The notes beneath the pieces are model-generated. The model was given only the letters and a program-made list of their open reading frames with translations, did no database searches and was not told the origin of the DNA. The position numbers and the translations under genes are program-made. DNA of 64,000 bases from Escherichia coli (GTDB lineage: Bacteria; Pseudomonadota; Gammaproteobacteria; Enterobacterales; Enterobacteriaceae), in assembly GCF_030013205.1 (NCBI RefSeq), contig NZ_CP122648.1. The stretch is one strand, 5' to 3'. Below, in pieces: positions 30,240 through 47,012 of this stretch. Within the stretch, counting starts at the first letter, position 1; each line of letters opens with the position of its first letter.

Positions 30240-30927
30240 CTCTCTTTAAGCCATCTTAAATGACTCTGAGGTGTCTGTTAAACCCGTGGCGATTCACGTA
30301 TCGCATTGGGCAAACTAAAGATGTGTATGTCTATTACCCAACTGTGAGAGATACTGAAATTACAACATTTGAAGAAACTCTGGATAACCTCCTACAACGC
30401 CGACGAGCATTGGCCAGAGATATGCTCTGCGCTACTCCCGATTTGAACTGTGCGGATTTTGAGACCATTTTGAAGGGAGCCTAACCGATATGAGCGGCAA
30501 TACTGCCAGTTGCCAAACCTGAAATAACACTTAGCTGTGATGATTCGCTATTACCTACCGATAGCTTCGGAAAACATAAATTAAAAATGCCCAGGGGAGT
30601 ACTATTATCGTTAGCATTACCCGAACGCCGTATTAACGGTTATTTATTGGTAAGTGCTACGTTCCATGGCAAGAGTTCATCAACACGGTTAGCCGACAGT
30701 ATATTGAGTATATGGCGCAGATATGCTTGCGGATTGATACCATTCAGACAGCAGGTCCCGCTCAGCCCGTACAGTAGAGCGCCGTTCACTACCGTAATCA
30801 CTGCCGAAAAACACATTGATTGCCCCTCAATAATCCTGCCGTCAACGTCAAAATTGCTGGTCGGGCTCGACTTATTTAATTGTGTAAACAGGGCCTCTCA
30901 GCGAAGGCCCTTATGCATCACCTGATG

Positions 30928-31359
30928 TTAAAAGTCACTACATCCAAGATGACGTTCAATGGCACCATGCGATTCAATGTAAGCCTGGGCCGTCTGTTCC
31001 AGTACACCAGGCTCAGCGTTGTATGTGTTAGCTGCATCAAATACCAACGACAACACTTCGGGATACACAACCAGATGTGTAACGGAGTTATCTTCATCCA
31101 ATACTTTTCCCCACGCCTGCTCAATTAGATTTCTGAGAACCACCACCTCACGACTCTTACACCAGACATCGTTATTAAGTAGCAGCACCATAAGATAAGG
31201 AGTGGCATCGTTAGCCACAGCTTCCCTACTCCAGAGGTAATATAAAGGGGTGGGCTCGACTGATTTATCTTTACGTCGCTTACACTGCAAATGTTCAGAA
31301 ATTAGTCTATGCAGTTCACCAGTAAAATCAACCATCAGAGAAGGAATTGCCTTATTCAT
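30928..31359 (-). CDS. Hypothetical protein (143 aa), unknown function
   Basis: Uninterrupted ORF only; IS1 remnant inserted ~6 bp upstream of its start codon. Confidence 0.35.
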   Translation of the reverse strand: MNKAIPSLMVDFTGELHRLISEHLQCKRRKDKSVEPTPLYYLWSREAVANDATPYLMVLLLNNDVWCKSREVVVLRNLIEQAWGKVLDEDNSVTHLVVYPEVLSLVFDAANTYNAEPGVLEQTAQAYIESHGAIERHLGCSDF

Positions 31360-31373
31360 ACCAGGGCAATGTA

Positions 31374-32032
31374 GGTAATGACTCCAACTTACTGATAGTG
31401 TTTTATGTTCAGATAATGCCCGATGACTTTGTCATGCAGCTCCACCGATTTTGAGAACGACAGCGACTTCCGTCCCAGCCGTGCCAGGTGCTGCCTCAGA
31501 TTCAGGTTATGCCGCTCAATTCGCTGCGTATATCGCTTGCTGATTACGTGCAGCTTTCCCTTCAGGCGGGATTCATACAGCGGCCAGCCATCCGTCCTCC
31601 ATATCCTGTCATACGCGTAAAACAACCAGCGCCGACGTAACCCCACTGTTCGTCCATTTCCGCGCAAACAATGACGTCACTGCCCGGTTGTATGCATGAG
31701 TTTACCGACTGCGGCCTGAGTTTTTTAAGTGTCGTAAAATCGTGTTGAGGCCAACGCCTATAATGCGTGCACTGGCGCGACATCCGACGCCATTCATGGC
31801 CATATCAATAATTTTCTGGTGTGTACCGGGCTGAGAGGCGGTGTAAGTGAACTATAGCTGCCATGTTTTACGGCAGTGAGAGCAGAGATAGCGCTGATGT
31901 CCGGCAGTACTTTTACCGTTACGCACCACGCCTTCAGTAGCTGAGCAGGAGGGACAACTGATGGAGATGGAAGCCACGGGAGCACCTCAAAAACACCATC
32001 GTACACTAAATCAGTAAGTTGGCACCATTACC
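31374..32032 (-). mobile_element. IS1 copy with ~109-bp internal deletion (659 bp vs 768 bp), insA/insB degenerate
   Basis: IS1 termini GGTAATGACTCCAACTTA... and ...CATTACC; 9-bp target duplication GGCAATGTA on both sides (31365-31373 and 32033-32041); InsB reads [15 protein letters not shown], lacking an internal segment. Confidence 0.85.
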
Positions 32033-33280
32033 GGCAATGTATTATTTAAACTGTAATAATTTAATTTTAGGATGTGTAGCAGCAGCCCGATACAGAGTTG
32101 CAAGGACACACTTTTGCCAGAGGGCGTTACAGGAAAGCTTAATGTTTGATTCTGTATACATAATAAATCACCTTATAGTTACAATAGGTCAAAAACCGCT
32201 GTAGCCAAAGTTACGCTGGCCTGATGCTTTAGTGTCGAACTTCGTCAAATAATCCAGACGTACCAATAAGCGCTGGTACTGCTCTGGGAAATCAGGATCG
32301 TTAATATCCAGGATGTAACGCCCATTAGTAGGGAAATGAACTAATCCCTGGTGATCTTCCAGTTCCAACCCTAAGGCACTGTACCAGGCTCCGGTAATTA
32401 ACCCTCTCAGGGTGTCAGAGCGCTCATAGTCTCCCAGGTGGTAATAGGCGTCTTTGTTAAACAACAGGCAGACGTGATAATGACATTTAAAGGACTGTGT
32501 ATATTCTTTCGCCCAGATAATACAAACCGACGTTGCGTAGGTGCGTTTGCCTTATTGTTTTTTACGGTGTTGATCTGCATTAATTTTCGCATTCAGCGAG
32601 TTACGGAAACGAGATATCTCTCCGGGGATCAGGTTAGGGAAACAGGTAATGGTATCCCCGTTGTCAATCACAGGAGGGTAATGGAGATCCACCCGTATTG
32701 CTGTTATTCTGGAAGTATTTTTAATATTCGTATTGATAGTTCTCAGAGATATATCACACTCTAGATATTTTAATTAAGTATCAGTTCGATATCGGCATAT
32801 TGTACACTACCTCAGGTAGATGATGAGATCAGATACAGGGATCAACTGACGGTGAACGCAGTTCCCACATTTTATCCAGGGCTTACTGCATATTCCCAAC
32901 AGCCATTCGTTAGCCAGGTAGACGAATACCCTTTCCGCTGGTTTTGCTTTCCCATCGAAGGGCCCATACATCATCACGCCCGCGAAACAACCGACGAAAT
33001 AATGCAACCTTCTCGTCGGTGGATAATACGAAAACGCACTGCACAGGGCTCTGCGGTTTACGTCACCATTCAATCCCATGAGCTTCAAGTTATGTTTGCC
33101 CTTAGTGCAGCTAATTCATCATTGTCAGATTTATGAACTATATGCGTTACCTGTACCTGCCCCACGGGGTACCACCACAGAAGATGAAGTGTCATAGTCC
33201 CCTGCGCTGAGGACAAAACTACGCATTAACGACAAATCCACGCGATAACTTACGATGGTTCGGGCATAAGCCCCCGTAAT

Positions 33281-33844
33281 TCAGTTATGTCGTGGTCGGC
33301 CGCGGTTACTTTTTTCGGGAAGCCTGCTACGGCCCAGAATAATACCGTGTTCTTTCTGATCTTGTTTAGCCAGGTAGCTGAGGGCGTAACGTAAGTCGTC
33401 TACCGCGGACTTATCACTATAGTGAATCACGTGATCGATACGCACCGGGTATTTATCTTTAGCCCGGCACAGATGAAAATAACCCTCCCCTTCCGTGATC
33501 CGCCTCCAGATATCTCCCAGTTGCCTGGATATCTGATAAGAGTTCTTGTGACGTTGTCCATCCAGATAGCCGATAAAATGAATATGAAGCCCTTTGTCTG
33601 GTGTATATTCCATTACCCAGTAATATCCCGCCAACATCGTCTGGGTTTCGCTAAGTAAACGGTATATTTCCATACACATACTGTGCTTACAGGAATGCCC
33701 GAAACTGGGCGTGTCTTTCCTGTAGGCAAAATCAATTCTGAAAGGTAACAGTTTAGAAAAACGTTGAAACAATCCCTCCATGTGTTCATTCACATCTTTC
33801 AGAATCGCGAAATTCATTTCGTAATTGGGATTGGCATTATACAT
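33281..33844 (-). CDS. YfjJ/YagK-family (inovirus Gp2-like) protein, possibly 3'-truncated
   Basis: 187-aa ORF resembling the CP4-57 YfjJ family as recalled; downstream short ORFs (32189-33088) may be frameshifted remnants. Confidence 0.5.
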   Translation of the reverse strand: MYNANPNYEMNFAILKDVNEHMEGLFQRFSKLLPFRIDFAYRKDTPSFGHSCKHSMCMEIYRLLSETQTMLAGYYWVMEYTPDKGLHIHFIGYLDGQRHKNSYQISRQLGDIWRRITEGEGYFHLCRAKDKYPVRIDHVIHYSDKSAVDDLRYALSYLAKQDQKEHGIILGRSRLPEKSNRGRPRHN

Positions 33845-34975
33845 TTTATAGTCCTTAATTTATAAAACTCACAGGAAGAGGAAATTATGTAAATACTGAG
33901 AGAACATAAACGCCGTACCACGGCATTAATAAACGAAGTAAACCAGCAGCACAGACACCCTGATAAAACTGTTTTGTATTACCGCATCGCTGTAACGAGG
34001 TAATACTTCAGAATACAGTGAGGCTCTCTTAAACAGAGGACCAGTAAGAATTACAATGGTAAAAACACACCTCATAGAATTGAGTTTAAGGAAGCACCAT
34101 TCACTCAACCTGACATTCACAAAAGTCAGTACCAGGTGGCCTCAGGTAACATCGCTATTAATATTATCCTGCCATTAAGTAAAAACAGAAACTCTGTGAG
34201 GAAGCCTCACCAATATTTGACCAGTAGCATAAAGAATAACGATATGAGAGATACGCCCACACCAGAGATGATTACCCCATACAAAAAAATAATATTTATT
34301 AATACCACCGAACCTCAATAGAGTAATAACACACTAATAGCGTCTTGGTACACACTTAACACTAACTATGCACCAGACACACACTCAGGATTAACATTCC
34401 CAACATTTATGATACTCTCAAAGAGTATAATTCACCACACAGGTAAACTCTCACACCAGTAGTATGGAGATAATGCTGTACACATACTTACAGAGTAAAG
34501 TGTACAGTTAGCATACAGTGGCGAGCAGACATTACAACATAAAGACATAAGATAGCATAATAAGAACATAACAAAACTCCCACTAATAATACTAATTAAC
34601 CTTAATTCTTTTTTGAACAGGAAATCAACATTGCTCCAGACCTCTTCAGGTCATACACTTTTGTATTGGATGTTCAATGTGTACTTCTGCACAAACAAAA
34701 AAATAAAACCCGCAAAATAAAATATCAGCCCCAAAAATACAGCGTGAAACACCACGTTATGGATATGTTTTCATATCACCAGAAGCATATTTCACACATA
34801 CAATACAGAAACAATTCATCATATAATCAGGGTTACTGTTCACTCCTCTCGGTTATCCGCGAGACGATAAAACATGACACTAATCACAAAAACGAGAGAT
34901 AGTATTTGCGAAATATAAACAACATAAAAATCAATGCGTTGCGATTTTTTATTTTTTCAGACATGCATGCCCCCT

Positions 34976-35011
34976 CTGCTATTGTTGCTAGCCGGCTAGC
35001 AACAATAGCAG
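34976..35011. repeat. Perfect 36-bp palindrome (ctgctattgttgctagcc|ggctagcaacaatagcag)
   Basis: Exact inverted repeat with no loop, immediately 3' of the IS2-split unknown gene. Confidence 0.8.
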
Positions 35012-35053
35012 GGATATACAAACATCGGATGCCAAAAACACGTTCCGATAATA

Positions 35054-35653
35054 TCATCGAGGATCTGACTGGTTGTTTTTAGTATCATCACCACAAATGA
35101 TGGTTAATGCGTTGTAGATCAGTCTGCGTCTGTTCTTGTTTTCAGCATTATTTCCATACAACATCATGACGTTTTTAATATCATCAACCGGTGATATTAC
35201 ATAATCAACCAATACGCCAAGCTTCTCAATACATTGCAGTAAAGTATATTTGTGTCTGCCCGTAAATAATCCTATCAGGTTTTCTTTACTTTCACGACTG
35301 GATAATATTTTGTTCTCTGTAATTAATTCAGCCAACGTTTCACCATCGTAAACACGTTCTTTATCTATCAGAATATTTATCTTATCTAACGCCCTCTCTA
35401 CATTATCAAGAAGACCTGTAATATACGGAGGCTGAATATCTGACTTTGTACTAATATTTGCAAGCATCGAATTATACATTTTAATGATACGCATCAGAGT
35501 AAAATTATTCGCATCATATTGTATTTCATCTTCATTATACGCAGGATCCGTCACGACCCTTAAGTCCATAAATGCATCCTGATAAGCTTTTACATAATCA
35601 AGTAATTCGAACAGTGAACCATGCTTTATTTTCTCCCTGTTTAATTTGATCTC
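35054..35653 (-). pseudogene. Unknown AT-rich gene, C-terminal part (codons ~409-607) separated from its 5' part by IS2
   Basis: Reading frame continues EI-KLNREKIKHGSLFELL... across the IS2 target duplication; see 36990-38213. Confidence 0.7.
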
Positions 35654-35744
35654 TAGACTGGCCCCCTGAATCTCCAGACAACCAGTATCACTTAAATAAG
35701 TGATAGTCTTAATACTAGTTTTTAGACTAGTCATTGGAGAACAG

Positions 35745-36110
35745 ATGATTGATGTCTTAGGGCCGGAGAAACGCAGACGGCGTACCACACAGGAAAAGAT
35801 CGCAATTGTTCAGCAGAGCTTTGAACCGGGGATGACGGTCTCCCTCGTTGCCCGGCAACATGGTGTAGCAGCCAGCCAGTTATTTCTCTGGCGTAAGCAA
35901 TACCAGGAAGGAAGTCTTACTGCTGTCGCCGCCGGAGAACAGGTTGTTCCTGCCTCTGAACTTGCTGCCGCCATGAAGCAGATTAAAGAACTCCAGCGCC
36001 TGCTCGGCAAGAAAACGATGGAAAATGAACTCCTCAAAGAAGCCGTTGAATATGGACGGGCAAAAAAGTGGATAGCGCACGCGCCCTTATTGCCCGGGGA
36101 TGGGGAGTAA
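35745..36110 (+). CDS. insC: IS2 OrfA (InsC)
   Basis: [41 protein letters not shown]... Confidence 0.9.
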
Positions 36111-36973
36111 GCTTAGTCAGCCGTTGTCTCCGGGTGTCGCGTGCGCAGTTGCACGTCATTCTCAGACGAACCGATGACTGGATGGATGGCCGCCGCAGTC
36201 GTCACACTGATGATACGGATGTGCTTCTCCGTATACACCATGTTATCGGAGAGCTGCCCACGTATGGTTATCGTCGGGTATGGGCGCTGCTTCGCAGACA
36301 GGCAGAACTTGATGGTATGTCTGCGATCAATGCCAAACGTGTTTACCGGATCATGCGCCAGAATGCGCTGTTGCTTGAGCGAAAACCTGCTGTACCGCCA
36401 TCGAAACGGGCACATACAGGCAGAGTGGCCGTGAAAGAAAGCAATCAGCGATGGTGCTCTGACGGGTTCGAGTTCTGCTGTGATAACGGAGAGAGACTGC
36501 GTGTCACGTTCGCGCTGGACTGCTGTGATCGTGAGGCACTGCACTGGGCGGTGACTACCGGCGGCTTCAACAGTGAAACAGTACAGGACGTCATGCTGGG
36601 AGCGGTGGAACGCCGCTTCGGCAACGATCTTCCGTCGTCTCCAGTGGAGTGGCTGACGGATAATGGTTCATGCTACCGGGCTAATGAAACACGCCAGTTC
36701 GCCCGGATGTTGGGACTTGAACCGAAGAACACGGCGGTGCGGAGTCCGGAGAGTAACGGAATAGCAGAGAGCTTCGTGAAAACGATAAAGCGTGACTACA
36801 TCAGTATCATGCCCAAACCAGACGGGTTAACGGCAGCAAAGAACCTTGCAGAGGCGTTCGAGCATTATAACGAATGGCATCCGCATAGTGCGCTGGGTTA
36901 TCGCTCGCCACGGGAATATCTGCGGCAGCGGGCTTGTAATGGGTTAAGTGATAACAGATGTCTGGAAATATAG
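36068..36973 (+). CDS. insD: IS2 OrfB transposase (InsD)
   Basis: 301-aa DDE transposase ORF overlapping insC. Confidence 0.9.
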
Positions 36974-36989
36974 GGGCAAATCCAATCTC

Positions 36990-38213
36990 CAGCGCTATCC
37001 TGAGAACTGAAAAAGCGCCGGGAAGATACCCAGAAGGTAACTCGTATTTTGGGGATTCATCATAAAACCGAAGAGCTTTGTGGAGTTTGTTCCGCCGAAT
37101 CAGATAAATAAGGACGGCCAGTAACATGTAGCACCTGGTCACATAACCACGGGCATTCTGCAACTGTTCAAAATAATTAATAATGTTTTCCAGATATACA
37201 TCATCATAACTTTTCTTATCAGAAAGATTAAACACCATATCTTTTAAAGATTCGATATATTCTTGTGATTTATCATCAAGTGACACAATATAACGAGTTA
37301 ATGCTCCTTTGGGGCCACTCTCAAACTCATGAAACCGTTCAAGTAATGCTCTTGCATAAGGCGTTGTGTCAAAAATATTAAAATCATAAAGATAGCGTGC
37401 AGCGTAGCCATACAACCCATGTACCCAAAGCCCTTCTCTTATCAGCACTCTGAGATAATATGCAATACTGTCAAGTATCTTTACCTTCCGTTGCATATCA
37501 AGCAAAATACTTAATGAATAAAATGCATAATAGAACTTGTCAATGTTGTTGAGTATTCTGTCCAGCTCACTCTTATCAAGCTTCTTCTCTCTGTAATCCT
37601 TCTTGTATTCATTCTTACAGGCCTTTATATATTGTTTCATAAGGCTCTTCCTTTTACCGTACCCTTTTCGAATAGTCCCCTGGTATTTTCCCAGCTCATA
37701 CATTTTTCCGTTTTCCCGAAAATCTTCTCTGTTAAATCCCAGTTCAGCAAGATACTCCCGGAGATAACGTTTAACGGCAGCCTCATCGCTTTCTGTACCA
37801 GAGTAATCCAGGCAGGGACAATATGATTTTTGCAAAAAATTATAGATATGATAATAAAACCCTGTTTCATTCTCCGGACGATATGTGTTATATATATCCA
37901 GAACAATAAAAACAACTCCAAAGCTTTTCAGAAAATAGTTACGGATATATTCGGACTTTAATGTTGAATACACAGGGTAAGAATTCATCATGTAATAAAA
38001 ATATTCATACCGGGAAAATATAATTCGCCGTTGTTCCAGACTATACACCCCTTCAGCATCAATAATGTGACTGAGCTCATTATAACGTTGATCCCAGAAT
38101 CTTTGATGCGCTCCAAAATCAGTACTCTTCCGCTTATCTCTCGGACTCTCTCCTTCCTTAAACAACTCAAAAACTGTACAAATATCATACAAAAGATTTG
38201 TAAACATGCGCAT
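36990..38213 (-). pseudogene. Unknown AT-rich gene, N-terminal part (codons 1-408), interrupted by IS2; divergent from alpA
   Basis: Long K/Y/N-rich ORF MRMFTNLLYDICTVFELFKEGESPRDKRK...; no family recognised by eye. Confidence 0.7.
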
Positions 38214-38301
38214 CTGCTCTGATCTCCGGTTGGTTTCCGTTTTATCACAGGGGACATTCTGGCCTTAACGTAGCAAATTAATGACATAGCCTTCAACTCA
38301 C

Positions 38302-38562
38302 ATGGAGAACAATATGTCAACCCAGACCGGACATTTTTATACCCCCTCACGCATCCTGCGTATGGCTGAACTTACCCGACTCCTTGGTATATCAAGATCG
38401 ACCATCTACGAAAAAATGAATCCGGCATCAAAATACTACGATGCCACCTTTCCCCGGCCTGTCCGGCTTGGGAGTTCGGCTGTAGGCTGGCGGGCATCTG
38501 CCATTGATGAGTGGTTAACTTTACATACAACACCAACCAGATCCGTAACTAAGGATAAATAA
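38302..38562 (+). CDS. alpA: AlpA-family phage/island transcriptional regulator (MerR-like HTH)
   Basis: ...ILRMAELTRLLGISRSTIYEKMNPASKYYDATFPRPVRLGSSAVGWRASAIDEWL... matches the AlpA pattern; true start may be an internal Met. Confidence 0.75.
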   Translation: MENNMSTQTGHFYTPSRILRMAELTRLLGISRSTIYEKMNPASKYYDATFPRPVRLGSSAVGWRASAIDEWLTLHTTPTRSVTKDK

Positions 38563-38577
38563 GGAAAACTGTACGCC

Positions 38578-39678
38578 ATGACAAAATTATCCCCCCCTGA
38601 ACTTGACATAACTAAACTGCCTGACAGGTGCCAGGCATTACTTGATGAAATGCATGAAGAAACGGGAATAAGCCGTGAAATACTGCTGTCTGTTATGCTG
38701 ACGGTCAAGGCTGCCTCGGTCCAGGATACGCATGAAGTTGAACTTTCTGGAGGGCAGCGTACCAGTCTTCAGATATATATGTGTCTTTCATCAGCATCAG
38801 GCAGTGGAAAAACCTCTGCCTGCGCAAAATTAATCGCCCCTGTTCATGAAACAGAAGAAGAACTACATCAGGCATATATCGACGATAAAAAAAACTATGA
38901 TCGCATGATGGAAATGTGGACAACAGATAAAAAAATCCTGGAGCGGAGATATAAAAAGGAAATGGAAAGATCCCCGGAAAATGCTGCTGCTGCACGAGCA
39001 GCGCTTGAAAAGTGTATAGCAAATAAACCCGTACCTCCCGTACAACAGGTTCTCATCGTGAATGACGCGACACCAGAAGGGATAGCTTTGAAACTCAGCC
39101 AGTCACCTTCTCTTCTGTTGCTGTCTGATGAAGGAGGAACTATTCTGGATAAGCGTTTCGAACGCAAATCGGCGCTGTACAACACATTATGGAGTGGGCA
39201 ACCAGTCACCGTAGAACGGGCATCCAGACCCGGGTTCCGGGTAAAGGATTCCCGTCTCACTATGCTTATACTGACTCAACCGGTAATATTTGATAAGTTT
39301 TTTACTCTCACTGGCGACCAGATCCGGGGCAATGGCTTTCTGGCCCGGGTGCTATTTTGCGAACCCGGAGCAAATAAAATAATGACGACAGAACCGCATA
39401 CTGCCACTCCTGTTGTAACGCAGCAATGTGCAACCTGTTTTCATGAGAAAAGTTTTGGCAGTCAGATCAGAGACTCTCTGAGAGCGTCCCGGGAAAGGCG
39501 TGCAAAAGGTGAGCAACGCATCCGCATGACATTATCACACGCAGCATCCCACGATCTGGAAATCTTTCACGAAGAAAATATGAGTGCCGTCAGGCAGAAC
39601 CCACGTATGACCACTTTCGAAGACATTATCGTCAGGAAAAGAGAACAGGCTGTTCGAATAGCCGCACTTCTGGAGCTG
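38578..39678 (+). pseudogene. YfjI-like (DUF3987-type) island protein, 5' part, interrupted by IS1
   Basis: Follows alpA as yfjI does in CP4-57; frame resumes after IS1 (ALLEL-ENNPHG...). Confidence 0.6.
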
Positions 39679-39693
39679 GGTAATGACTCCAAC

Positions 39694-40197
39694 TTACTGA
39701 TAGTGTTTTATGTTCAGATAATGCCCGATGACCTTGTCATGCAGCTCCACCGATTTTGAGAACGACAGTGACTTCCGTCCCAGCCTTGCCAGATGTTGTC
39801 TCAGATTCAGGTTATGCCGCTCAATGCGCTGAGTATAACGCTTGCTGATAACGTGCAGCTTTCCCTTCAGGCGTGATTCATACAGCGGCCAGCCATCCGT
39901 CATCCATACCACGACCTCAAAGGCCGACAGCAGGCTCAGAAGACGCTCCAGTGTGGCCAGAGTGCGTTCACCGAAGACGTGCGCCACAACCGTCCTCCGC
40001 ATCCTGTCATACGCGTAAAACAGCCAGCGCTGACGTGATTTAGCACCGACGTAGCCCCACTGTTCGTCCATTTCAGCGCAGACAATCACATCACTGCCCG
40101 GTTGTATGCGCGAGGTTACCGACTGCGGCCTGAGTTTTTTAAGTGGCGGAAAATCGTGTTGAGGCCAACGCCAATAATGCGTGCACTGGCGCGACAT
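39694..40197 (-). CDS. insB: IS1 InsB
   Basis: 167-aa [30 protein letters not shown]... Confidence 0.85.
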
Positions 40198-40391
40198 CCG
40201 ACGCCATTCATGGCCATATCAATGATTTTCTGGTGCGTACCGGGCTGAGAGGCGGCGTAAGTGAACTGTAGTTGCCATGTTTTACGGCAGTGAGAGCAGA
40301 GATAGCGCTGATGTCCGGCGGTGCTTTTGCCGTTACGCACCACCCCGTCAGTAGCTGAACAGGAGGGACAGCTGATAGAAACAGAAGCCAC
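40116..40391 (-). CDS. insA: IS1 InsA
   Basis: 91-aa [46 protein letters not shown]... Confidence 0.85.
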
Positions 40392-40446
40392 TGGAGCACC
40401 TCAAAAACACCATCATACACTAAATCAGTAAGTTGGCAGCATCACC

Positions 40447-40920
40447 CTGGAGCTGGAGAACAATCCACATGGTACAGTAATAACACGAGAAAGTATCAAT
40501 AGTGCTATTTATCTCGTTGATTTTTATTTTCAGCATCTTATATCCAAACTGGAATCACTTCGGGAAATATCTCCTGCAGAAAAACTGGATAAATGGCTCA
40601 GAGAAAATATCATCCGGGTAAAAGGATACGAATATCAAAAAAGCCATATACTACAATATGGTCCATATGCTCTCAGGAATAAATGTGTTCTTGATGAAGC
40701 ACTTGATATACTTGCAGAACAGAAAAAAATCGTAATTGATTATTCAATCGGCCAAAAAATCATTTATATCGGTGACGCGATTACACCTTGTGAATTAGCA
40801 AATGAGGCAAACATCCCGATAATGGAACGTGGAATGTTTATAGTCTGTTGGGACCATAAGCTGAATAAGTACAGAAATGAAGAACAGACTAAAATATGGA
40901 ACATAACTACAAAAAATTAA
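40447..40920 (+). pseudogene. YfjI-like protein, 3' part after IS1
   Basis: In-frame continuation to a stop at 40918-40920. Confidence 0.6.
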
Positions 40921-40964
40921 AATTCCCGTCTTTTATCATTCAGTTACCAACCTGATTATCTGAA

Positions 40965-41005
40965 ACAATGCCAGACATCGGTTACAGACTGGCATTGTTT
41001 TTATC
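40965..41005 (+). terminator. Hairpin (caatgccag...ctggcattg) followed by T-run
   Basis: 9-bp stem inverted repeat then TTTTTATCATT, seen 3' of the yfjI-like gene. Confidence 0.5.
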
Positions 41006-41143
41006 ATTCAATTTATAAACTACAATATTACGTATTATTTTTATATTTATGTCATTGCAAATATCAGACAAACAAGCATTATAACTCAATAAGTATATTT
41101 TTCGTGATTACAGACGGCATCTGCAAATCTGTGAGATGTGATT

Positions 41144-42352
41144 TCATCGCTGGTTTTCCATAATCTGAGACATCACATAATCCGCCCATGCCTGCATCAT
41201 CGGTATACGCTGATCCAGCAGATCAGTCCGGTGATATGCCGCCTCAACCTTATTTTTCAGCGTGTGGGCAAGCGCCCTTTCCGCCAAATCCCGCGAATAT
41301 CCCTGTTCGCTACACCAGTCCCTGAATGTTGAACGAAAACCATGTGCTGTAGCCACTCGTCCGGGTATATCACTGATGGCCTTCTTTTTACGCAGAAAAC
41401 TCGTCAACACCATATCTGAAAGGATCTGCTGCTTTCTGGGAGAAGGAAACACCAGTTCGTCATGCAGACCACGTATATTTTCCAGAACGTGAATGGCCTG
41501 TCGGGATAAAGGAACACGATGCTGTATCCTGGCTTTCATTCTTTCTGCGGGTATCGTCCATATCCGCTTATGAAAATCAATTTCAGCCCAGCGCATTCCC
41601 CTTGCCTCGCCCGAGCGGGTTGCTGTCAGTATCACCATTAATAACAGTGCCCGGGTAACATTATAAGGTTCATCTGTATACACACTGGTCGCCACAAAAA
41701 GCGGTAACTGCCTCCAGGGCATTGCCGGCTGGTGTTCATCACGTCCTCTTGATTGCTGTGGAAGCAAATGATCAACCACATCAACAGGATTCGCCACACA
41801 AAAACCATGCGCCCAGCCCCACTGCATAACAACATGAATGCGCTGTTTAACCCGGCTTGCCGTTTCTGACAAGGTTAACCAGACTGGACGCAGTGTTTCT
41901 GCCACGTCCGCAGCCGTAATCGAATCCAGCGTTTTTGCTCCCAGTTGAGGAAACGCGTAATTCTCAAGCGTCGATAACCACTGCCTTACATGCTTTGGAT
42001 TTTCCCATCCAGGAGACAATTCTGCATGTACACGCCGGGCTGCATCGGCAAATGTTGGGATAACAACTTTTTCAGCTTCAGCCTTTTTAATCTCCAGAGG
42101 ATCATCACCTGCAGCAAGTTGCTCTCGCATTATCCGGGCAGTACGTGCAGCTTCAGCAATACTGACCTCAGGGTAAGTTCCCAATCCAGCATTACGCCTT
42201 TTTTGTGTCACCGGACTTACATAACGAAAAACCCATTTACCCCTCCCCTTTACTGAAGAAGGATGAAGAGTCAGTCCTGTAATTCCCCCATGGGGCAATG
42301 GTTTGTCATCAGGTTTGATATGCCTTGCTTTAGTATCCGTCAATACTGCCAT
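41144..42352 (-). CDS. Tyrosine site-specific integrase (P4/CP4-type)
   Basis: 402-aa ORF with phage-integrase-like N-terminal region and C-terminal catalytic-domain-like H..R...Y spacing; adjacent to the att repeat. Confidence 0.85.
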   Translation of the reverse strand: MAVLTDTKARHIKPDDKPLPHGGITGLTLHPSSVKGRGKWVFRYVSPVTQKRRNAGLGTYPEVSIAEAARTARIMREQLAAGDDPLEIKKAEAEKVVIPTFADAARRVHAELSPGWENPKHVRQWLSTLENYAFPQLGAKTLDSITAADVAETLRPVWLTLSETASRVKQRIHVVMQWGWAHGFCVANPVDVVDHLLPQQSRGRDEHQPAMPWRQLPLFVATSVYTDEPYNVTRALLLMVILTATRSGEARGMRWAEIDFHKRIWTIPAERMKARIQHRVPLSRQAIHVLENIRGLHDELVFPSPRKQQILSDMVLTSFLRKKKAISDIPGRVATAHGFRSTFRDWCSEQGYSRDLAERALAHTLKNKVEAAYHRTDLLDQRIPMMQAWADYVMSQIMENQR

Positions 42353-42512
42353 ACGCTAATTCCTGTTACTCTGGTATGCCATTCAGTATGCCATTAGTCT
42401 CTCACTTCACTAAGAATACATTAGATAACATCGGACAGCAAAAATTGTAATGCATTGTTTATAATGAGGTTATATAACACTCCCGGATTAAGTCAGATTT
42501 ATTTCAGGCGGT

Positions 42513-42526
42513 CCCCCTCACCGCCA
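42513..42526 (+). repeat. attR-like direct repeat of the tRNA-Ser 3' end (ccccctcaccgcca)
   Basis: 14-bp match to 5489-5502 in the same orientation; marks the distal island boundary. Confidence 0.7.
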
Positions 42527-42539
42527 TCTTTAAAGAAGA

Positions 42540-42568
42540 GCTCGTACGAAGGTACGGGCTTTTTTTTC
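42540..42568 (+). terminator. Hairpin + T8 run after the tRNA 3'-end repeat
   Basis: gctcgtac-gaag-gtacgggc followed by TTTTTTTT. Confidence 0.5.
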
Positions 42569-42630
42569 GTATATTGCATAGACCGGGGGGATGAGAAGCC
42601 CCAGGCGGAGGTCGACAACTAGCGACAGAC

Positions 42631-43998
42631 TCATTCATCATCCTTGCGGTTGATAAGAATTTCTGCCTCTTTTACTACCACCTTATTACGCCCGGTCTCT
42701 TTCGCCTCGTATAGTGCGTTATCAGCCAGTCGATAGATCTCATTCGGGTTTAACGCATTTTCCTGAGTCACAACAGCGCCAATACTAATCGTCACTTTTT
42801 GTGGTATGGCGTATTCAGGATTATCACCAGTTAAACGCTCAACATTTTCCCGAATCCTTTCCGCTAAAGCTTTCGCACGTTCAGTATCGATGTCCGTCAG
42901 CAAGACGCCAAACTCTTCGCCGCCGACGCGCGCAAAAAGGTCATCTGGCCGTATGCTTTTCCCAATGATACTCACCACTGTTTTTATCACCTGATCGCCA
43001 ACCGGATGCCCCCAGGTGTCGTTGACTTTTTTGAAGTGGTCGATATCCATAATCATGACGCAATAAGGCGTTTTTTTGGCCGATGCTGATTGAACTGTCA
43101 GTTCATTAAAAAAATAATTTCTGTTAAATATATTGGTTAAGGAATCGCGATGTGCAATGTCCTTTGTTACTCGTAGCGCACTGAATATATGGCACATAAA
43201 TATTACCATAACGGTTAACTTACTGACTACTTCAATAGTGCGACTAATATACCAAATGGACACGCTATACCTGCTCATAAATAAAAGAGAGACATTGTAC
43301 AGTACGGCACAAAAAGCAATCACCGTCACTCCATTCCAGATATCACAGCGTAAACCATTAAAGTATAGATTAACTGAAAGCAAGGTTAACCACATGAAAA
43401 TCATTATGGTAACATATGATGTTTTCCAAACCACCTGATCATTTTCATTGGTTAACTCGGCAATGTGTAAATTGTAGCTCTCATAATGACTAGAAAGTAT
43501 GTGAGCAACTATCGGCCCCCCAACAACAAAAAACAAACTTATGCACAAAGTCATTTTTTTGGAAAATAAATTGCGCTGTTTTGTGTTTTCACTAACTTTA
43601 TTCACCAATGCCAGAAATATTAATATGCACAAACTCATCTGACGAAACAAATAATAGATTGCAATGTCATTTTGAACAACACTGCTTGTCAAACGCCCCT
43701 CAATAATTTGCTGAATGATAATGACGGTTTTAACAAAGTAAATCAAACAACTCAGAAAAGCCAAACTAAGTATACAGTTTGAAAATTGCCTACGGTCATA
43801 AATGAAATACAACTGCATAAAAATAAATGCAACAGTATCGATAAAAAATAAAGCAATCATTACCATCAGATAGGTTGATCGTGGAACAACTTCCTCAACG
43901 CCTGGCTGATTAAAGCAACTATTCACCAAAACCAAAGCAAGCCCAAACAATAAGCTCACTAATACAGTACTACTAATTCTCAAATAGTCTTTTTCCAT
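42631..43998 (-). CDS. dgcT: Diguanylate cyclase DgcT (YcdT), membrane-anchored GGDEF protein
   Basis: Multiple TM segments then GGDEF domain (RVGGEEFGVLL); start placed at MEKDYLRISS. Confidence 0.85.
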   Translation of the reverse strand: MEKDYLRISSTVLVSLLFGLALVLVNSCFNQPGVEEVVPRSTYLMVMIALFFIDTVAFIFMQLYFIYDRRQFSNCILSLAFLSCLIYFVKTVIIIQQIIEGRLTSSVVQNDIAIYYLFRQMSLCILIFLALVNKVSENTKQRNLFSKKMTLCISLFFVVGGPIVAHILSSHYESYNLHIAELTNENDQVVWKTSYVTIMIFMWLTLLSVNLYFNGLRCDIWNGVTVIAFCAVLYNVSLLFMSRYSVSIWYISRTIEVVSKLTVMVIFMCHIFSALRVTKDIAHRDSLTNIFNRNYFFNELTVQSASAKKTPYCVMIMDIDHFKKVNDTWGHPVGDQVIKTVVSIIGKSIRPDDLFARVGGEEFGVLLTDIDTERAKALAERIRENVERLTGDNPEYAIPQKVTISIGAVVTQENALNPNEIYRLADNALYEAKETGRNKVVVKEAEILINRKDDE

Positions 43999-44588
43999 AA
44001 AGCTACACCAATCTGTAGGTTGTAGATCCCTTTCTATTATTAATAGATATAAGAACTGTACTGTTGTCAATATGAAATTCCGCCCACAAACAATACCGAT
44101 GATGATAGTTGCATACCGCAATTATTATTACCTTAGTGCTTTATACATTCTTCGCGACAAGACAGGCTTGCAAATACATATAAATGGTTATAAGGAAATC
44201 CTTATAAAACATTAATTCATAGATATATTAGGAATAACAATTGAATCCGTGAGTACAGTAACGCTGCACTTCATCAGGACTTTCGAAAAATCCGATATCA
44301 TGCATCGGAATTTACTGATTTAATTATTTTAATCCTAATTTATTTTGAAAAAGGCATTGGGATTTATGCCGTATTCCTGAAGTTCCTCATCATTGGAATG
44401 GATTTTCAGGCGAGAAAAGGATTTTATATGGATACTCTACTCATCATTTCTTCTTCTCATCATCAACAATTCACGTCTCTCTTCCGCGTTTAATAACGGA
44501 TTATGATGTGCAAAAAAAATATCTTTCGTTTCAGTTACCTGTAATTAGATACAGAGAGAGATTTTGGCAATACATGGAGTAATACAGG

Positions 44589-47012
44589 ATGTATTCAAGT
44601 AGCAGAAAAAGGTGCCCGAAAACCAAATGGGCTTTGAAAATTCTTACTGCCGCATTTTTAGCAGCGAGTCCCGCGGCGAAGAGTGCTGCTAATAATGCCT
44701 ATGATGCATTGATTATCGAAGCTCGCAAGGGAAATACTCAGCCAGCTTTGTTATGGTTTGCACAAAAATCAGCACTCAGTAATAACCAAATTGCTGACTG
44801 GTTACAGATTGCCTTATGGGCCGGGCAAGATAAACAGGTTATTACCGTTTACAACCGCTACCGTCATCAGCAATTACCAGCGCGTGGTTATGCAGCTGTC
44901 GCCGTCGCTTATCGTAACCTGCAACAATGGCAAAACTCGCTTACACTGTGGCAAAAGGCACTCTCTCTGGAGTCGCAAAATAAGGATTATCAACGGGGAC
45001 AAATTTTAACCCTGGCAGATGCGGGTCACTATGATTCTGCGCTGGTTAAACTTAAGCAGCTTAACTCTGGAGCACCGGACAAAGCTAATTTACTCGCAGA
45101 AGCCTATATCTATAAACTGGCGGGGCGGCATGAGGATGAATTACGGGCGATGACAGGGTCATTACCTGAAAATGCCTTAACGCAACAATATCCCACAGAA
45201 TACGTGCAGGCATTACGGAATAATCAACTTGCTGCCGCGATTGACGATGCCAATTTAACGCCAGATATTCGCGCTGATATTCATGCCGAACTGGTCAGAC
45301 TGTCGTTTATGCCTACGCGCAGTGAAAGTGAACGTTATGCCATTGCCGATCGCGCCCTCGCCCAATACGCTGCATTAGAAATTCTGTGGCATGATAACCC
45401 TGACCGCACTGCCCAGTACCAGCGTATTCAGGTTGATCATCTTGGCGCGTTATTAACTCGCGATCGTTATAAAGACGTTATTTCTCACTATCAGCGTTTA
45501 AAAAAGACGGGGCAAATTATTCCGCCCTGGGCGCAATATTGGGTTGCGTCGGCTTATCTCAAAGAACATCAGCCAAAAAAAGCACAGTCAATAATGACAG
45601 AGCTCTTTTATCACAAGGAGACCATTGCCCCGGATTTATCCGATGAAGAACTTGCGGATCTCTTTTACAGCCACCTGGAGAGTGAAAATTATCCCGGCGC
45701 GCTAACTGTCACCCAACATACCATTAATACTTCGCCGCCTTTCCTTCGGTTAATGGGCACGCCTACGAGCATCCCGAATGATACCTGGTTACAGGGGCAT
45801 TCGTTTCTCTCAACCGTAGCTAAATATAGTAATGATCTTCCTCAGGCTGAAATGACAGCCAGAGAGCTTGCTTATAACGCACCAGGAAATCAGGGACTGC
45901 GCATTGATTACGCGAGTGTGTTACAAGCCCGCGGTTGGCCTCGTGCGGCAGAAAATGAATTAAAAAAAGCAGAAGTGATCGAGCCACGTAATATTAATCT
46001 GGAGGTTGAACAAGCCTGGACAGCATTAACGTTACAAGAATGGCAGCAGGCAGCGGTCTTAACGCACGATGTTGTCGAACGTGAACCGCAAGATCCCGGC
46101 GTTGTACGTTTAAAACGTGCGGTTGATGTACATAATCTTGCAGAGCTTCGTATCGCTGGCTCAACAGGAATTGATGCCGAAGGTCCGGATAGTGGCAAAC
46201 ATGATGTCGACTTAACCACCATCGTTTATTCACCACCGCTGAATGATAACTGGCGCGGTTTTGCTGGATTCGGTTATGCCGATGGACAATTTAGCGAAGG
46301 AAAAGGGATTATTCGCGACTGGCTTGCGGGTGTTGAGTGGCGGTCACGTAATATCTGGCTTGAGGCGGAGTACACCGAACGCTTTTTCAATCATGAGCAT
46401 AAACCCGGCGCGCGCCTGTCTGGCTGGTATGATTTTAATGATAACTGGCGTATTGGTTCGCAACTGGAACGCCTCTCTCACCGCGTTCCATTACGGGCAA
46501 TGAAAAATGGTGTTACAGGCAACAGTGCACAGGCTTATGTTCGCTGGTATCAAAATGAGCGGCGTAAGTACGGTGTCTCTTGGGCTTTCACTGATTTTTC
46601 TGACAGTAATCAGCGTCATGAAGTCTCACTTGAGGGTCAGGAACGCATCTGGTCTTCACCATATTTGATTGTCGATTTCCTCCCCAATCTGTATTACGAA
46701 CAAAATACAGAACACGACACCCCATACTACAACCCTGTAAAAATGTTCGATATTGTTCCGGCATTTGAGGCAAGTCATTTGTTATGGCGAAGCTATGAAA
46801 ATAGCTGGGAGCAAATATTCAGCGCAGGTGTTGGTGCCTCCTGGCAAAAACATTATGGCACGGATGTCGTCACCCAACTCGGCTACGGGCAACGCATTAG
46901 CTGGAATGACGTGATTGATGCTGGCGCAACGCTACGCTGGGAAAAACGACCTTATGACGGTGACAGAGAACACAACTTATACGTTGAATTCGATATGACA
47001 TTCAGATTTTAA
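44589..47012 (+). CDS. pgaA: PGA export outer-membrane porin PgaA (TPR + beta-barrel)
   Basis: 807-aa ORF, first gene of pgaABCD. Confidence 0.9.
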   Translation: MYSSSRKRCPKTKWALKILTAAFLAASPAAKSAANNAYDALIIEARKGNTQPALLWFAQKSALSNNQIADWLQIALWAGQDKQVITVYNRYRHQQLPARGYAAVAVAYRNLQQWQNSLTLWQKALSLESQNKDYQRGQILTLADAGHYDSALVKLKQLNSGAPDKANLLAEAYIYKLAGRHEDELRAMTGSLPENALTQQYPTEYVQALRNNQLAAAIDDANLTPDIRADIHAELVRLSFMPTRSESERYAIADRALAQYAALEILWHDNPDRTAQYQRIQVDHLGALLTRDRYKDVISHYQRLKKTGQIIPPWAQYWVASAYLKEHQPKKAQSIMTELFYHKETIAPDLSDEELADLFYSHLESENYPGALTVTQHTINTSPPFLRLMGTPTSIPNDTWLQGHSFLSTVAKYSNDLPQAEMTARELAYNAPGNQGLRIDYASVLQARGWPRAAENELKKAEVIEPRNINLEVEQAWTALTLQEWQQAAVLTHDVVEREPQDPGVVRLKRAVDVHNLAELRIAGSTGIDAEGPDSGKHDVDLTTIVYSPPLNDNWRGFAGFGYADGQFSEGKGIIRDWLAGVEWRSRNIWLEAEYTERFFNHEHKPGARLSGWYDFNDNWRIGSQLERLSHRVPLRAMKNGVTGNSAQAYVRWYQNERRKYGVSWAFTDFSDSNQRHEVSLEGQERIWSSPYLIVDFLPNLYYEQNTEHDTPYYNPVKMFDIVPAFEASHLLWRSYENSWEQIFSAGVGASWQKHYGTDVVTQLGYGQRISWNDVIDAGATLRWEKRPYDGDREHNLYVEFDMTFRF

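Follow-up and report, generated by a model that had tools for sequence, protein, structure and literature searches.

What does a large, AT-rich gene do that lies back to back with the regulator gene alpA on an integrated island of Escherichia coli, and what does it mean that this gene is cut in two by an insertion sequence (IS)? The question is raised by a stretch of 64,000 nucleotides from contig NZ_CP122648.1 (assembly GCF_030013205.1), referred to below as the window, in which the split gene, here called X, is found at positions 35054–38213. An earlier note, made from the sequence alone, had suggested that IS2 knocked out a costly or toxic effector of the abortive-infection kind, carried as island cargo. 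We find that the window copy of X is a pseudogene, killed by one IS2 insertion, and that X itself looks like a conserved, fast-evolving accessory protein of the alpA–DUF3987 core of CP4-57/SpLE1-type islands. Such islands are common in E. coli, Shigella and relatives and carry anti-phage systems; those of Shiga toxin-producing E. coli also carry virulence (iha-linked) and tellurite/urease cargo. We know of no control of their excision and replication beyond AlpA.

The split gene consists of the following parts.

35054..35653, minus strand: 3' part of X (codons 409–607 and the stop codon), which holds the best-conserved block of the family
35654..36984, plus strand: IS2, recognized by its inverted repeats, the ATCTC duplication and the name given by the NCBI annotation pipeline (PGAP) in an identical genome
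36985..38213, minus strand: 5' part of X (codons 1–408 are 38213..36990; 36985–36989 are one ATCTC copy)

The inserted element is 1331 bp long, lies in opposite orientation to X and has imperfect IS2-type terminal inverted repeats. It contains two overlapping transposase open reading frames (ORFs; 35700–36110, 136 aa, and 36068–36973, 301 aa) and is flanked by direct copies of a 5-bp target duplication, ATCTC, at 35649–35653 and 36985–36989. Length, repeats, ORF pair and duplication are those of IS2 (IS3 family), and the PGAP label for an identical copy, in E. coli O139:H1 W13-16, is “IS3-like element IS2 family transposase”. When IS2 and one ATCTC copy were removed in silico, joining 38213..36990 to 35653..35054 on the minus strand, a single ORF of 607 codons was restored, just as the earlier note had proposed. 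It reads ...RIALE-I-KLNREKIKHG... across the junction (surrounding product ...RIALEIKLNREKIKHG...). The rejoined ORF is no chance reading, since the same 607-aa gene is annotated uninterrupted in other E. coli genomes (hypothetical protein WP_001242276.1). Its 5' part is 100% identical to O139:H1 and enterotoxigenic E. coli (ETEC) genomes and 99.9% identical to the intact allele of strain W444. The peculiar composition ascribed to X holds as well, with 36.3% GC against 47.9% in the window and an abundance of L (68 residues), Y (58), K (46), I (45) and N (36).

The surroundings of X in the window are listed next.

38214..38313, no strand assigned: divergent control region between X and alpA, 100 bp, with a presumed promoter function
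38314..38562, plus strand: alpA, annotated by PGAP, with PHROG excisionase/regulator matches (Phage_AlpA helix-turn-helix family, Pfam PF05930, in homologous loci)
38578..40920, plus strand: DUF3987 gene (YfjI-type, helicase/primase-like), interrupted by IS1 at about 39680–40446
41144..42352, minus strand: P4-type tyrosine integrase gene (int), adjoining dgcT/ycdT and pgaABCD
33281..33844, minus strand: Inovirus-Gp2-type/YagK_YfjJ-like gene (gp2), an island backbone gene

With a P4-type integrase, AlpA, DUF3987 (YfjI) and a YagK_YfjJ/Gp2-type protein, the island has the complete core of the CP4-57/SpLE1 type. X is indeed divergent from alpA within this CP4-type island, 100 bp apart, while its description as integrase-proximal was loose, as the integrase lies 2.9 kb off, past alpA and DUF3987. 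The same arrangement was found in 13 of 13 lineages from Enterobacterales and Aeromonas, whose X proteins share 22–38% mutual identity: X is transcribed divergently, over a shared control region, from an alpA–DUF3987 excision/replication operon, which is usually followed by a YagK_YfjJ/Gp2-type gene and lies beside a P4-type integrase. The spacer between X and alpA measures 97–103 bp in 7 of the 13 loci, and its X-side block (consensus ..GATACTGTCCCCGTAAAAAAACGGAAACCAACCGGAG) is kept among loci with X proteins of only about 30% identity. Relative to int and gp2, the X-alpA-DUF3987 block varies in orientation and position from island to island, with the pairing retained. X is monocistronic and usually followed by convergent genes; standing alone with a convergent neighbour is how switch regulators are usually arranged. 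Beyond X, the genes are different at every locus and mostly belong to conflict systems, among them type I restriction-modification (R-M), CHAT, GAP1/DO-GTPase/GASH, Abi_alpha/Abi_C and CRISPR-Cas. It is these genes which behave as variable cargo, and the constant pairing of X with alpA and DUF3987 does not support the idea that X belongs among them. X also has the lowest GC content of its module in all 13 loci, 1–13 points below alpA, DUF3987, gp2 and int, and the gap reaches at least 4 points in 12 of them, whatever the GC content of the host. This AT-richness may relate to H-NS silencing or to amino acid composition.

Scans of the module for short signals gave little. Promoter and terminator consensus scans showed no enrichment over shuffled sequences, and the best AlpA-type motif common to the X-alpA region and the region upstream of int (11 of 14 positions) was no better than in shuffles. 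A conserved small ORF downstream of X was absent across 15 loci. In the window, a 57-codon ORF (35057–34884, minus strand) starts within an ATGA that it shares with the stop codon of X and continues across the palindrome described below; it is probably no gene, since it is not conserved in other lineages. A search of positions 31000–45000 against Rfam found nothing at the palindrome or in the X-alpA intergenic region.

How closely X is tied to its neighbours can be read from their divergence. Pairwise identity of X correlates with that of AlpA (Spearman 0.80), DUF3987 (0.63; 85 pairs) and gp2 (0.67; 39 pairs), coefficients which are descriptive only, as the pairs are non-independent. In 65 of 85 pairs, X shows lower identity than both AlpA and DUF3987. 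Within E. coli, a second X allele (611 aa, 72% identical) occurs in other strains at the same dgcT/ycdU site, on an iha-carrying island which we take to be SpLE1-like. Between the two alleles, dS (synonymous divergence) is 0.89 for X and 0.82 for alpA, but only 0.18–0.19 for int and gp2; X and alpA therefore form one recombination unit. At this dS of 0.89, the ratio of nonsynonymous to synonymous divergence (dN/dS) of X is 0.185, which indicates purifying selection. A more distant comparison at the same integration site, between the W444 island (locus L001) and locus L014, gives identities of 97% for int, 94% for gp2, 80% for alpA, 30% for X and 26% for DUF3987, and the X-alpA-DUF3987 block is inverted between the two. 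Since int and gp2 are near-identical here while X and DUF3987 are divergent, the block appears to have been exchanged as a cassette.

Databases were searched for families related to X in order to characterize the protein. Nothing in Pfam matched, although the cut-off was relaxed to E ≤ 10, and nothing in NCBIfam, PHROGs or the sequences and profiles of PDB; the models of PADLOC-DB 2.0 likewise gave no family for X (E ≤ 1) or for its relative P0075 (E ≤ 0.01). Profile searches with an alignment of 19 members (Pfam, NCBIfam, PADLOC, PHROGs, PDB) did not reveal a family either, and neither X nor the 19 aligned members matched the all-alpha abortive-infection (Abi) families of Pfam (Abi_2, Abi_alpha, Abi_C). 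A match to a housekeeping or phage structural family, which would have spoken against the earlier note's view of X as something undescribed, was sought in PHROGs, BFVD, NCBIfam, PDB and by tblastn in phages, and none appeared. That view stands: X is a family without an earlier description, catalogued only as hypothetical, although its position is of a known kind. HMMER, run exhaustively over 1.84 billion cluster representatives, yielded 44 matches, about 15 of them full-length at 25–33% identity; an alignment-based repeat of the word-indexed protein search gave close relatives only, and a genome scan with a narrower alignment found just two loci, both of the P0077 lineage. Relatives occur in E. 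coli/Shigella, Yersinia, Hafnia, Kluyvera, Dickeya, Citrobacter, Klebsiella, Edwardsiella, Providencia, Morganella and Aeromonas. Those with names are “hypothetical” or “uncharacterized”, save for a handful of truncated copies called “membrane protein” and one long form of Aeromonas media labelled only “helix-turn-helix domain-containing protein”. X was absent from a phage collection of 50,697 records (tblastn), and a plasmid collection contained it only in five E. coli records, of which the one inspected (pB39_V) carries chromosomal genes.

An AlphaFold2 model built on the family alignment is entirely alpha-helical with 28 helices (mean predicted local distance difference test score, pLDDT, 84.6; predicted template modelling score, pTM, 0.83). 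X is thus predicted to be a soluble, all-alpha protein with a helical-repeat fold that may resemble tetratricopeptide repeats. Foldseek searches returned only uncharacterized relatives from AFDB50, with template modelling (TM) scores of 0.8–0.9 at 25–30% identity, and nothing at E ≤ 0.001 from the viral structures of BFVD. No transmembrane segment was detected in X (maximal 19-residue hydropathy 1.4, grand average of hydropathy −0.46, isoelectric point 7.9); the hydropathy values rule out the name “membrane protein” found in some database entries. The best-conserved blocks, LPxGYL..AF.I..IALKIKL, DANNxTIMRSIKxYN and GLLDxV..AL.KI, lie in the C-terminal half and contain no recognizable catalytic motif. 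L490 and K499 are invariant in the alignment, and G395, I410, N458, Y468 and N469 nearly so. Neither model nor sequence shows an enzymatic, pore-forming, nuclease, nucleoside triphosphatase (NTPase) or AAA+/loader-type feature, and the suggestion of a toxin accordingly finds no support in the predicted structure.

Two long forms from Aeromonas, P0114 (933 aa, locus L013) and P0103 (865 aa, loci L010–L012), have an N-terminal domain derived from an IS481 transposase fused to a complete X domain. In P0114, NF033577 is matched at E 4e-22 and a helix-turn-helix (HTH_29) is detectable at E 6e-6; in P0103, the NF033577 match has an E-value of 6e-19 and no Pfam HTH match is seen. Both NF033577 scores are well under the family cut-off, so the fused transposase-type domain is divergent. 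P0114 gives only trivial matches in PADLOC-DB 2.0, through its HTH. The fusion in P0114 suggests, as judged from its sequence, a DNA-associated role. In the Aeromonas long-form loci, the spacer between X and alpA is 435–463 bp long instead of about 100 bp. Two H-NS-like genes adjoin the integrase in L010 and L011.

From all this, X works most like a switch regulator or sensor, and our best guess, held at low confidence (a probability of roughly 0.35), is that it controls the divergent X/alpA switch of the island or serves as its sensor. The guess draws on the strict divergent pairing and the shared control region, on the way X co-diverges with AlpA, on its monocistronic arrangement, on the scaffold of helical repeats and on the fusion that bears an HTH. 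Further support comes from X being unlike cargo, as the flanking defence genes vary per locus and X is missing from phages. X could then act by repression, by anti-activation or as AlpA's signal-sensing partner, and would set the time at which the alpA–DUF3987 (excision/replication) operon fires, a logic resembling that of Stl in Staphylococcus aureus pathogenicity islands (SaPIs). An effect of X on transcription, DNA binding by its short form and the sensing of a phage are steps which we infer for such a switch. Anatomy, conservation and fold class of X are the firm part of the picture, and whatever any reading of its role says beyond them, we infer.

A number of observations weigh against a switch. 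In CP4-57 of E. coli K-12, the place of X is filled by yfjH (318 aa); YfjH as a remote homolog of X was considered and rejected (hhalign probability 0.5%). Four to five alpA–DUF3987 islands in IMG/VR have no X at all, and since such modules exist without it, X must be an accessory which is not needed for basic island functions. Being the most AT-rich gene of a module is also typical of accessory “moron” genes. In the 607-aa form, Pfam profile searches found no DNA-binding domain or HTH, the isoelectric point of this form is close to neutral, literature searches for WP_001242276, TOTE, yfjH and YfjI with AlpA returned nothing relevant and hence no support, and, to our knowledge, the PICI-type satellites of Gram-negative bacteria (phage-inducible chromosomal islands) are described as having no dedicated repressor.

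Some of these points fit equally well with X as an anti-phage or interference accessory, possibly expressed from an AlpA-dependent promoter, which would act in abortive infection or helper exploitation by protein–protein interaction. This is the idea of the earlier note in a weaker form. The defence systems adjoining X, and abpAB on CP4-57 of K-12, are compatible with it, and being both the fastest-diverging gene in most pairs and the most AT-rich one would suit an arms-race gene. All-alpha Abi families such as Abi_2 and Abi_alpha exist, so that a helical fold is no obstacle. The slot beside alpA, which holds X, yfjH or neither, recalls the satellites called PICMIs (phage-inducible chromosomal minimalist islands), in which a variable gene of unknown function lies between int and alpA (PMC10803314). 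On the other hand, X matches no PADLOC, Pfam Abi or PHROG family even at permissive thresholds and has no effector, nuclease, NTPase or transmembrane feature. Its divergence follows that of AlpA and DUF3987, where cargo would be shuffled; it is not carried by phages and hardly by plasmids, and a dN/dS of 0.19 over the whole gene does not hint at positive selection. Positive evidence for a defence or interference role was not obtained; such a role is possible, and we rate it a little below the switch.

The IS2 insertion itself, from which the idea of a costly gene had started, does not help this case. A 400-bp probe across the insertion site was run against 5426 complete E. coli genomes and matched 158 of them, in 140 of which the site is uninterrupted. 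The IS2-split copies inspected all come from pig ETEC/O139:H1 (about 18 of the 158 carriers), and the IS2 allele is therefore one clonal event and not a recurrent knockout; repeated IS disruption as a sign of toxicity was rejected on this ground. X is, moreover, not the only broken gene of the island. Compared with the intact copy in W13-16, the DUF3987 gene of the window has an extra 767–768 bp with the IS1 ORFs insA/insB, and as W13-16 is otherwise identical, IS1 must be a further, more recent event. On its left side, the island is littered with pseudogenes and IS debris. IS1-broken DUF3987 and IS debris beside the IS2-broken X point to a general decay of the island in the porcine ETEC/O139:H1 lineage. 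A single clonal insertion in a decaying island, and purifying selection on X elsewhere, leave the proposal of a costly or toxic abortive-infection gene without support. The IS2 allele of the O139:H1/ETEC clone has a use of its own, as, set against intact alleles such as that of W444, it is a natural knockout.

Decay could also be thought to apply to X in general, as a degenerating or selfish remnant without a current function, linked to alpA only by common descent. The lack of an assignable family or function, the many truncated copies in databases and the dispensability of X in some islands would agree with that. However, full-length ORFs of 570–660 aa are kept across Enterobacterales and Aeromonas at 22–38% identity, the dN/dS of 0.185 at a dS of 0.89 speaks for selection on the protein, the fold is confidently predicted and shared with distant relatives, and in most E. 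coli carriers the IS2 site has no interruption. This conservation largely refutes a remnant, which we regard as very improbable.

Several further features were seen towards the island's ends. From about 30900 to 33250, the window holds debris of IS1 and IS30, additional YagK/Gp2-type fragments and the remnants of a PrimPol-plus-helicase gene (PGAP: “TOTE conflict system archaeo-eukaryotic primase”). An intact version of that gene, 786 aa long, is present in the sister island of strain FORC_069 (L019, 14059–16419; PADLOC PrimPol E 1e-143). At the other side, a tandem direct repeat, GTATGCCATT-CA-GTATGCCATT, lies at 42374–42395 immediately upstream of the integrase start codon and may be a putative arm-type or regulator binding site; a sequence like it in the X-alpA region, AATGACATA, does not exceed chance expectation. 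PGAP annotates RtT-like small RNA repeats just outside the integrase end in W444 (L001, 16992–17309), which lacks the dgcT–pga region present in the window, and in FORC_069 (L019, 6538–6674). The serX tRNA gene is located at 5415–5502 of the window, 36 kb from the island.

A second conserved element lies downstream of X.

34974..35013, no strand assigned: perfect palindrome of 40 bp, with arms of 20 nt and no loop, 41 bp 3' of the X stop codon
Copies at other loci: L019 12044–12082, L002 9837–9876, L016 9870–9913, L024 7774–7823, L032 11103–11134 and L015 approx. 4908–4940

A similar palindrome (arms 15–25 nt, loop 0–4 nt) is found 9–71 bp past the X stop codon in 10 of the 13 lineages and is the longest one present in each of these 10 loci. 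It follows the plan TGCTA-N5-GCTA-N4-6-TAGC-N5-TAGCA, in which the GCTA cores are constant and the spacers, though variable, stay complementary. In E. coli, the 158 genomes with X are precisely those with the window's palindrome. The plan is also present in X-less alpA–DUF3987 islands, namely between alpA and DUF3987 in CP4-57-like contigs, where the K-12 copy is decayed, and upstream of alpA in two other islands; in one X-less island, direct TGCTAC repeats, iteron-like in look, flank it. An identical core of 32 bp is shared by an Aeromonas island and a CP4-57-like island with AlpA and DUF3987 of only about 30% identity. By inspection of the sequence, the palindrome has no U-tract. It may be an origin or an iteron site; a hairpin for single-strand initiation, a site for AlpA and a terminator of an unusual type are candidates too. 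In the window, the 1.2 kb between X and the Gp2-type gene (33845–35053, approx. 36% GC) contain no annotated or conserved ORF, and the sister island has only the 476 bp nearest the Gp2-type gene in conserved form (79%). This segment may hold an unwinding region or a promoter.

The palindrome and the adjoining AT-rich tract, located directly downstream of X in these 10 lineages, bring in a role of X in replication, as a loader, specificity or origin-remodelling factor which would act together with DUF3987 at these sites. The joint exchange of X and DUF3987 between islands sharing int and gp2 (with the rho of 0.63 given above), the iteron-like repeats and the fusion to a transposase-derived, putatively DNA-binding domain would all fit. 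Against this, X lies outside the DUF3987 operon and has no AAA+ or other loader-type fold. As the palindrome plan occurs in islands without X, X is not needed for the palindrome, and the identical core beside so divergent AlpA and DUF3987 proteins argues against a lineage-specific binder. We therefore rate a replication factor as distinctly improbable.

A bolder form of the switch reading would bring both elements together. X might be the missing master switch of a widespread class of islands in enterobacteria and Aeromonas, the CP4-57/SpLE1/OI-43 type, as a fast-evolving helical-repeat sensor which holds AlpA–DUF3987 off until a specific phage or stress signal arrives, with the GCTA palindrome as the origin or another cis site of the same programme. 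So specific a version is unlikely. If it were true, supposedly cryptic islands would be inducible, satellite-like elements, and X an analogue of Stl in an unrelated fold. For the window, the message is modest, namely a pseudogene in a decaying island; the family behind it is well defined. Strictly paired with alpA in 13 deeply divergent lineages, X is a concrete candidate for island control or a new interference function, and the conserved palindrome is a second, testable cis element.

How does X compare with known systems? Membership in RRNPP (NprR, Rap, PlcR, AimR) was ruled out, because the 607-aa X has no HTH, and only P0114 of the two long forms has one, and because no conserved small peptide ORF adjoins X in the 15 loci; the hosts, further, are Gram-negative. 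PICMI, PICI and P4-like satellites share the int-alpA-primase (DUF3987) core and defence cargo with the X islands. They differ in that the X loci examined have no fis, capsid-remodelling or packaging genes; X was absent from the phage/satellite genome collection and from the IMG/VR matches, and induction by a helper phage is only putative for the X islands. Compared with SaPI Stl and phage CI-type regulators, X lacks sequence homology and convincing structural homology, has no detectable HTH in its 607-aa form, is more than twice the size of Stl and can be missing from related islands. Sequence-specific DNA binding and derepression by a helper-phage protein, the marks of a Stl-type repressor, would be putative properties of X. 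Nevertheless, X resembles these regulators in being monocistronic and divergent from an excision/replication operon across a short shared control region, in its predicted all-helical structure and in diverging much faster than the island backbone. Finally, CP4-57 (intA-yfjH-alpA-yfjI-yfjJ) and the SpLE1/OI-43-like islands differ from X islands in module order and orientation relative to int, which vary between islands, and in YfjH, which is unlike X. They share with them the backbone of P4-type integrase, AlpA, DUF3987/YfjI and YagK_YfjJ/Gp2-type protein, in which X takes the slot divergent from alpA that is held by yfjH in K-12.

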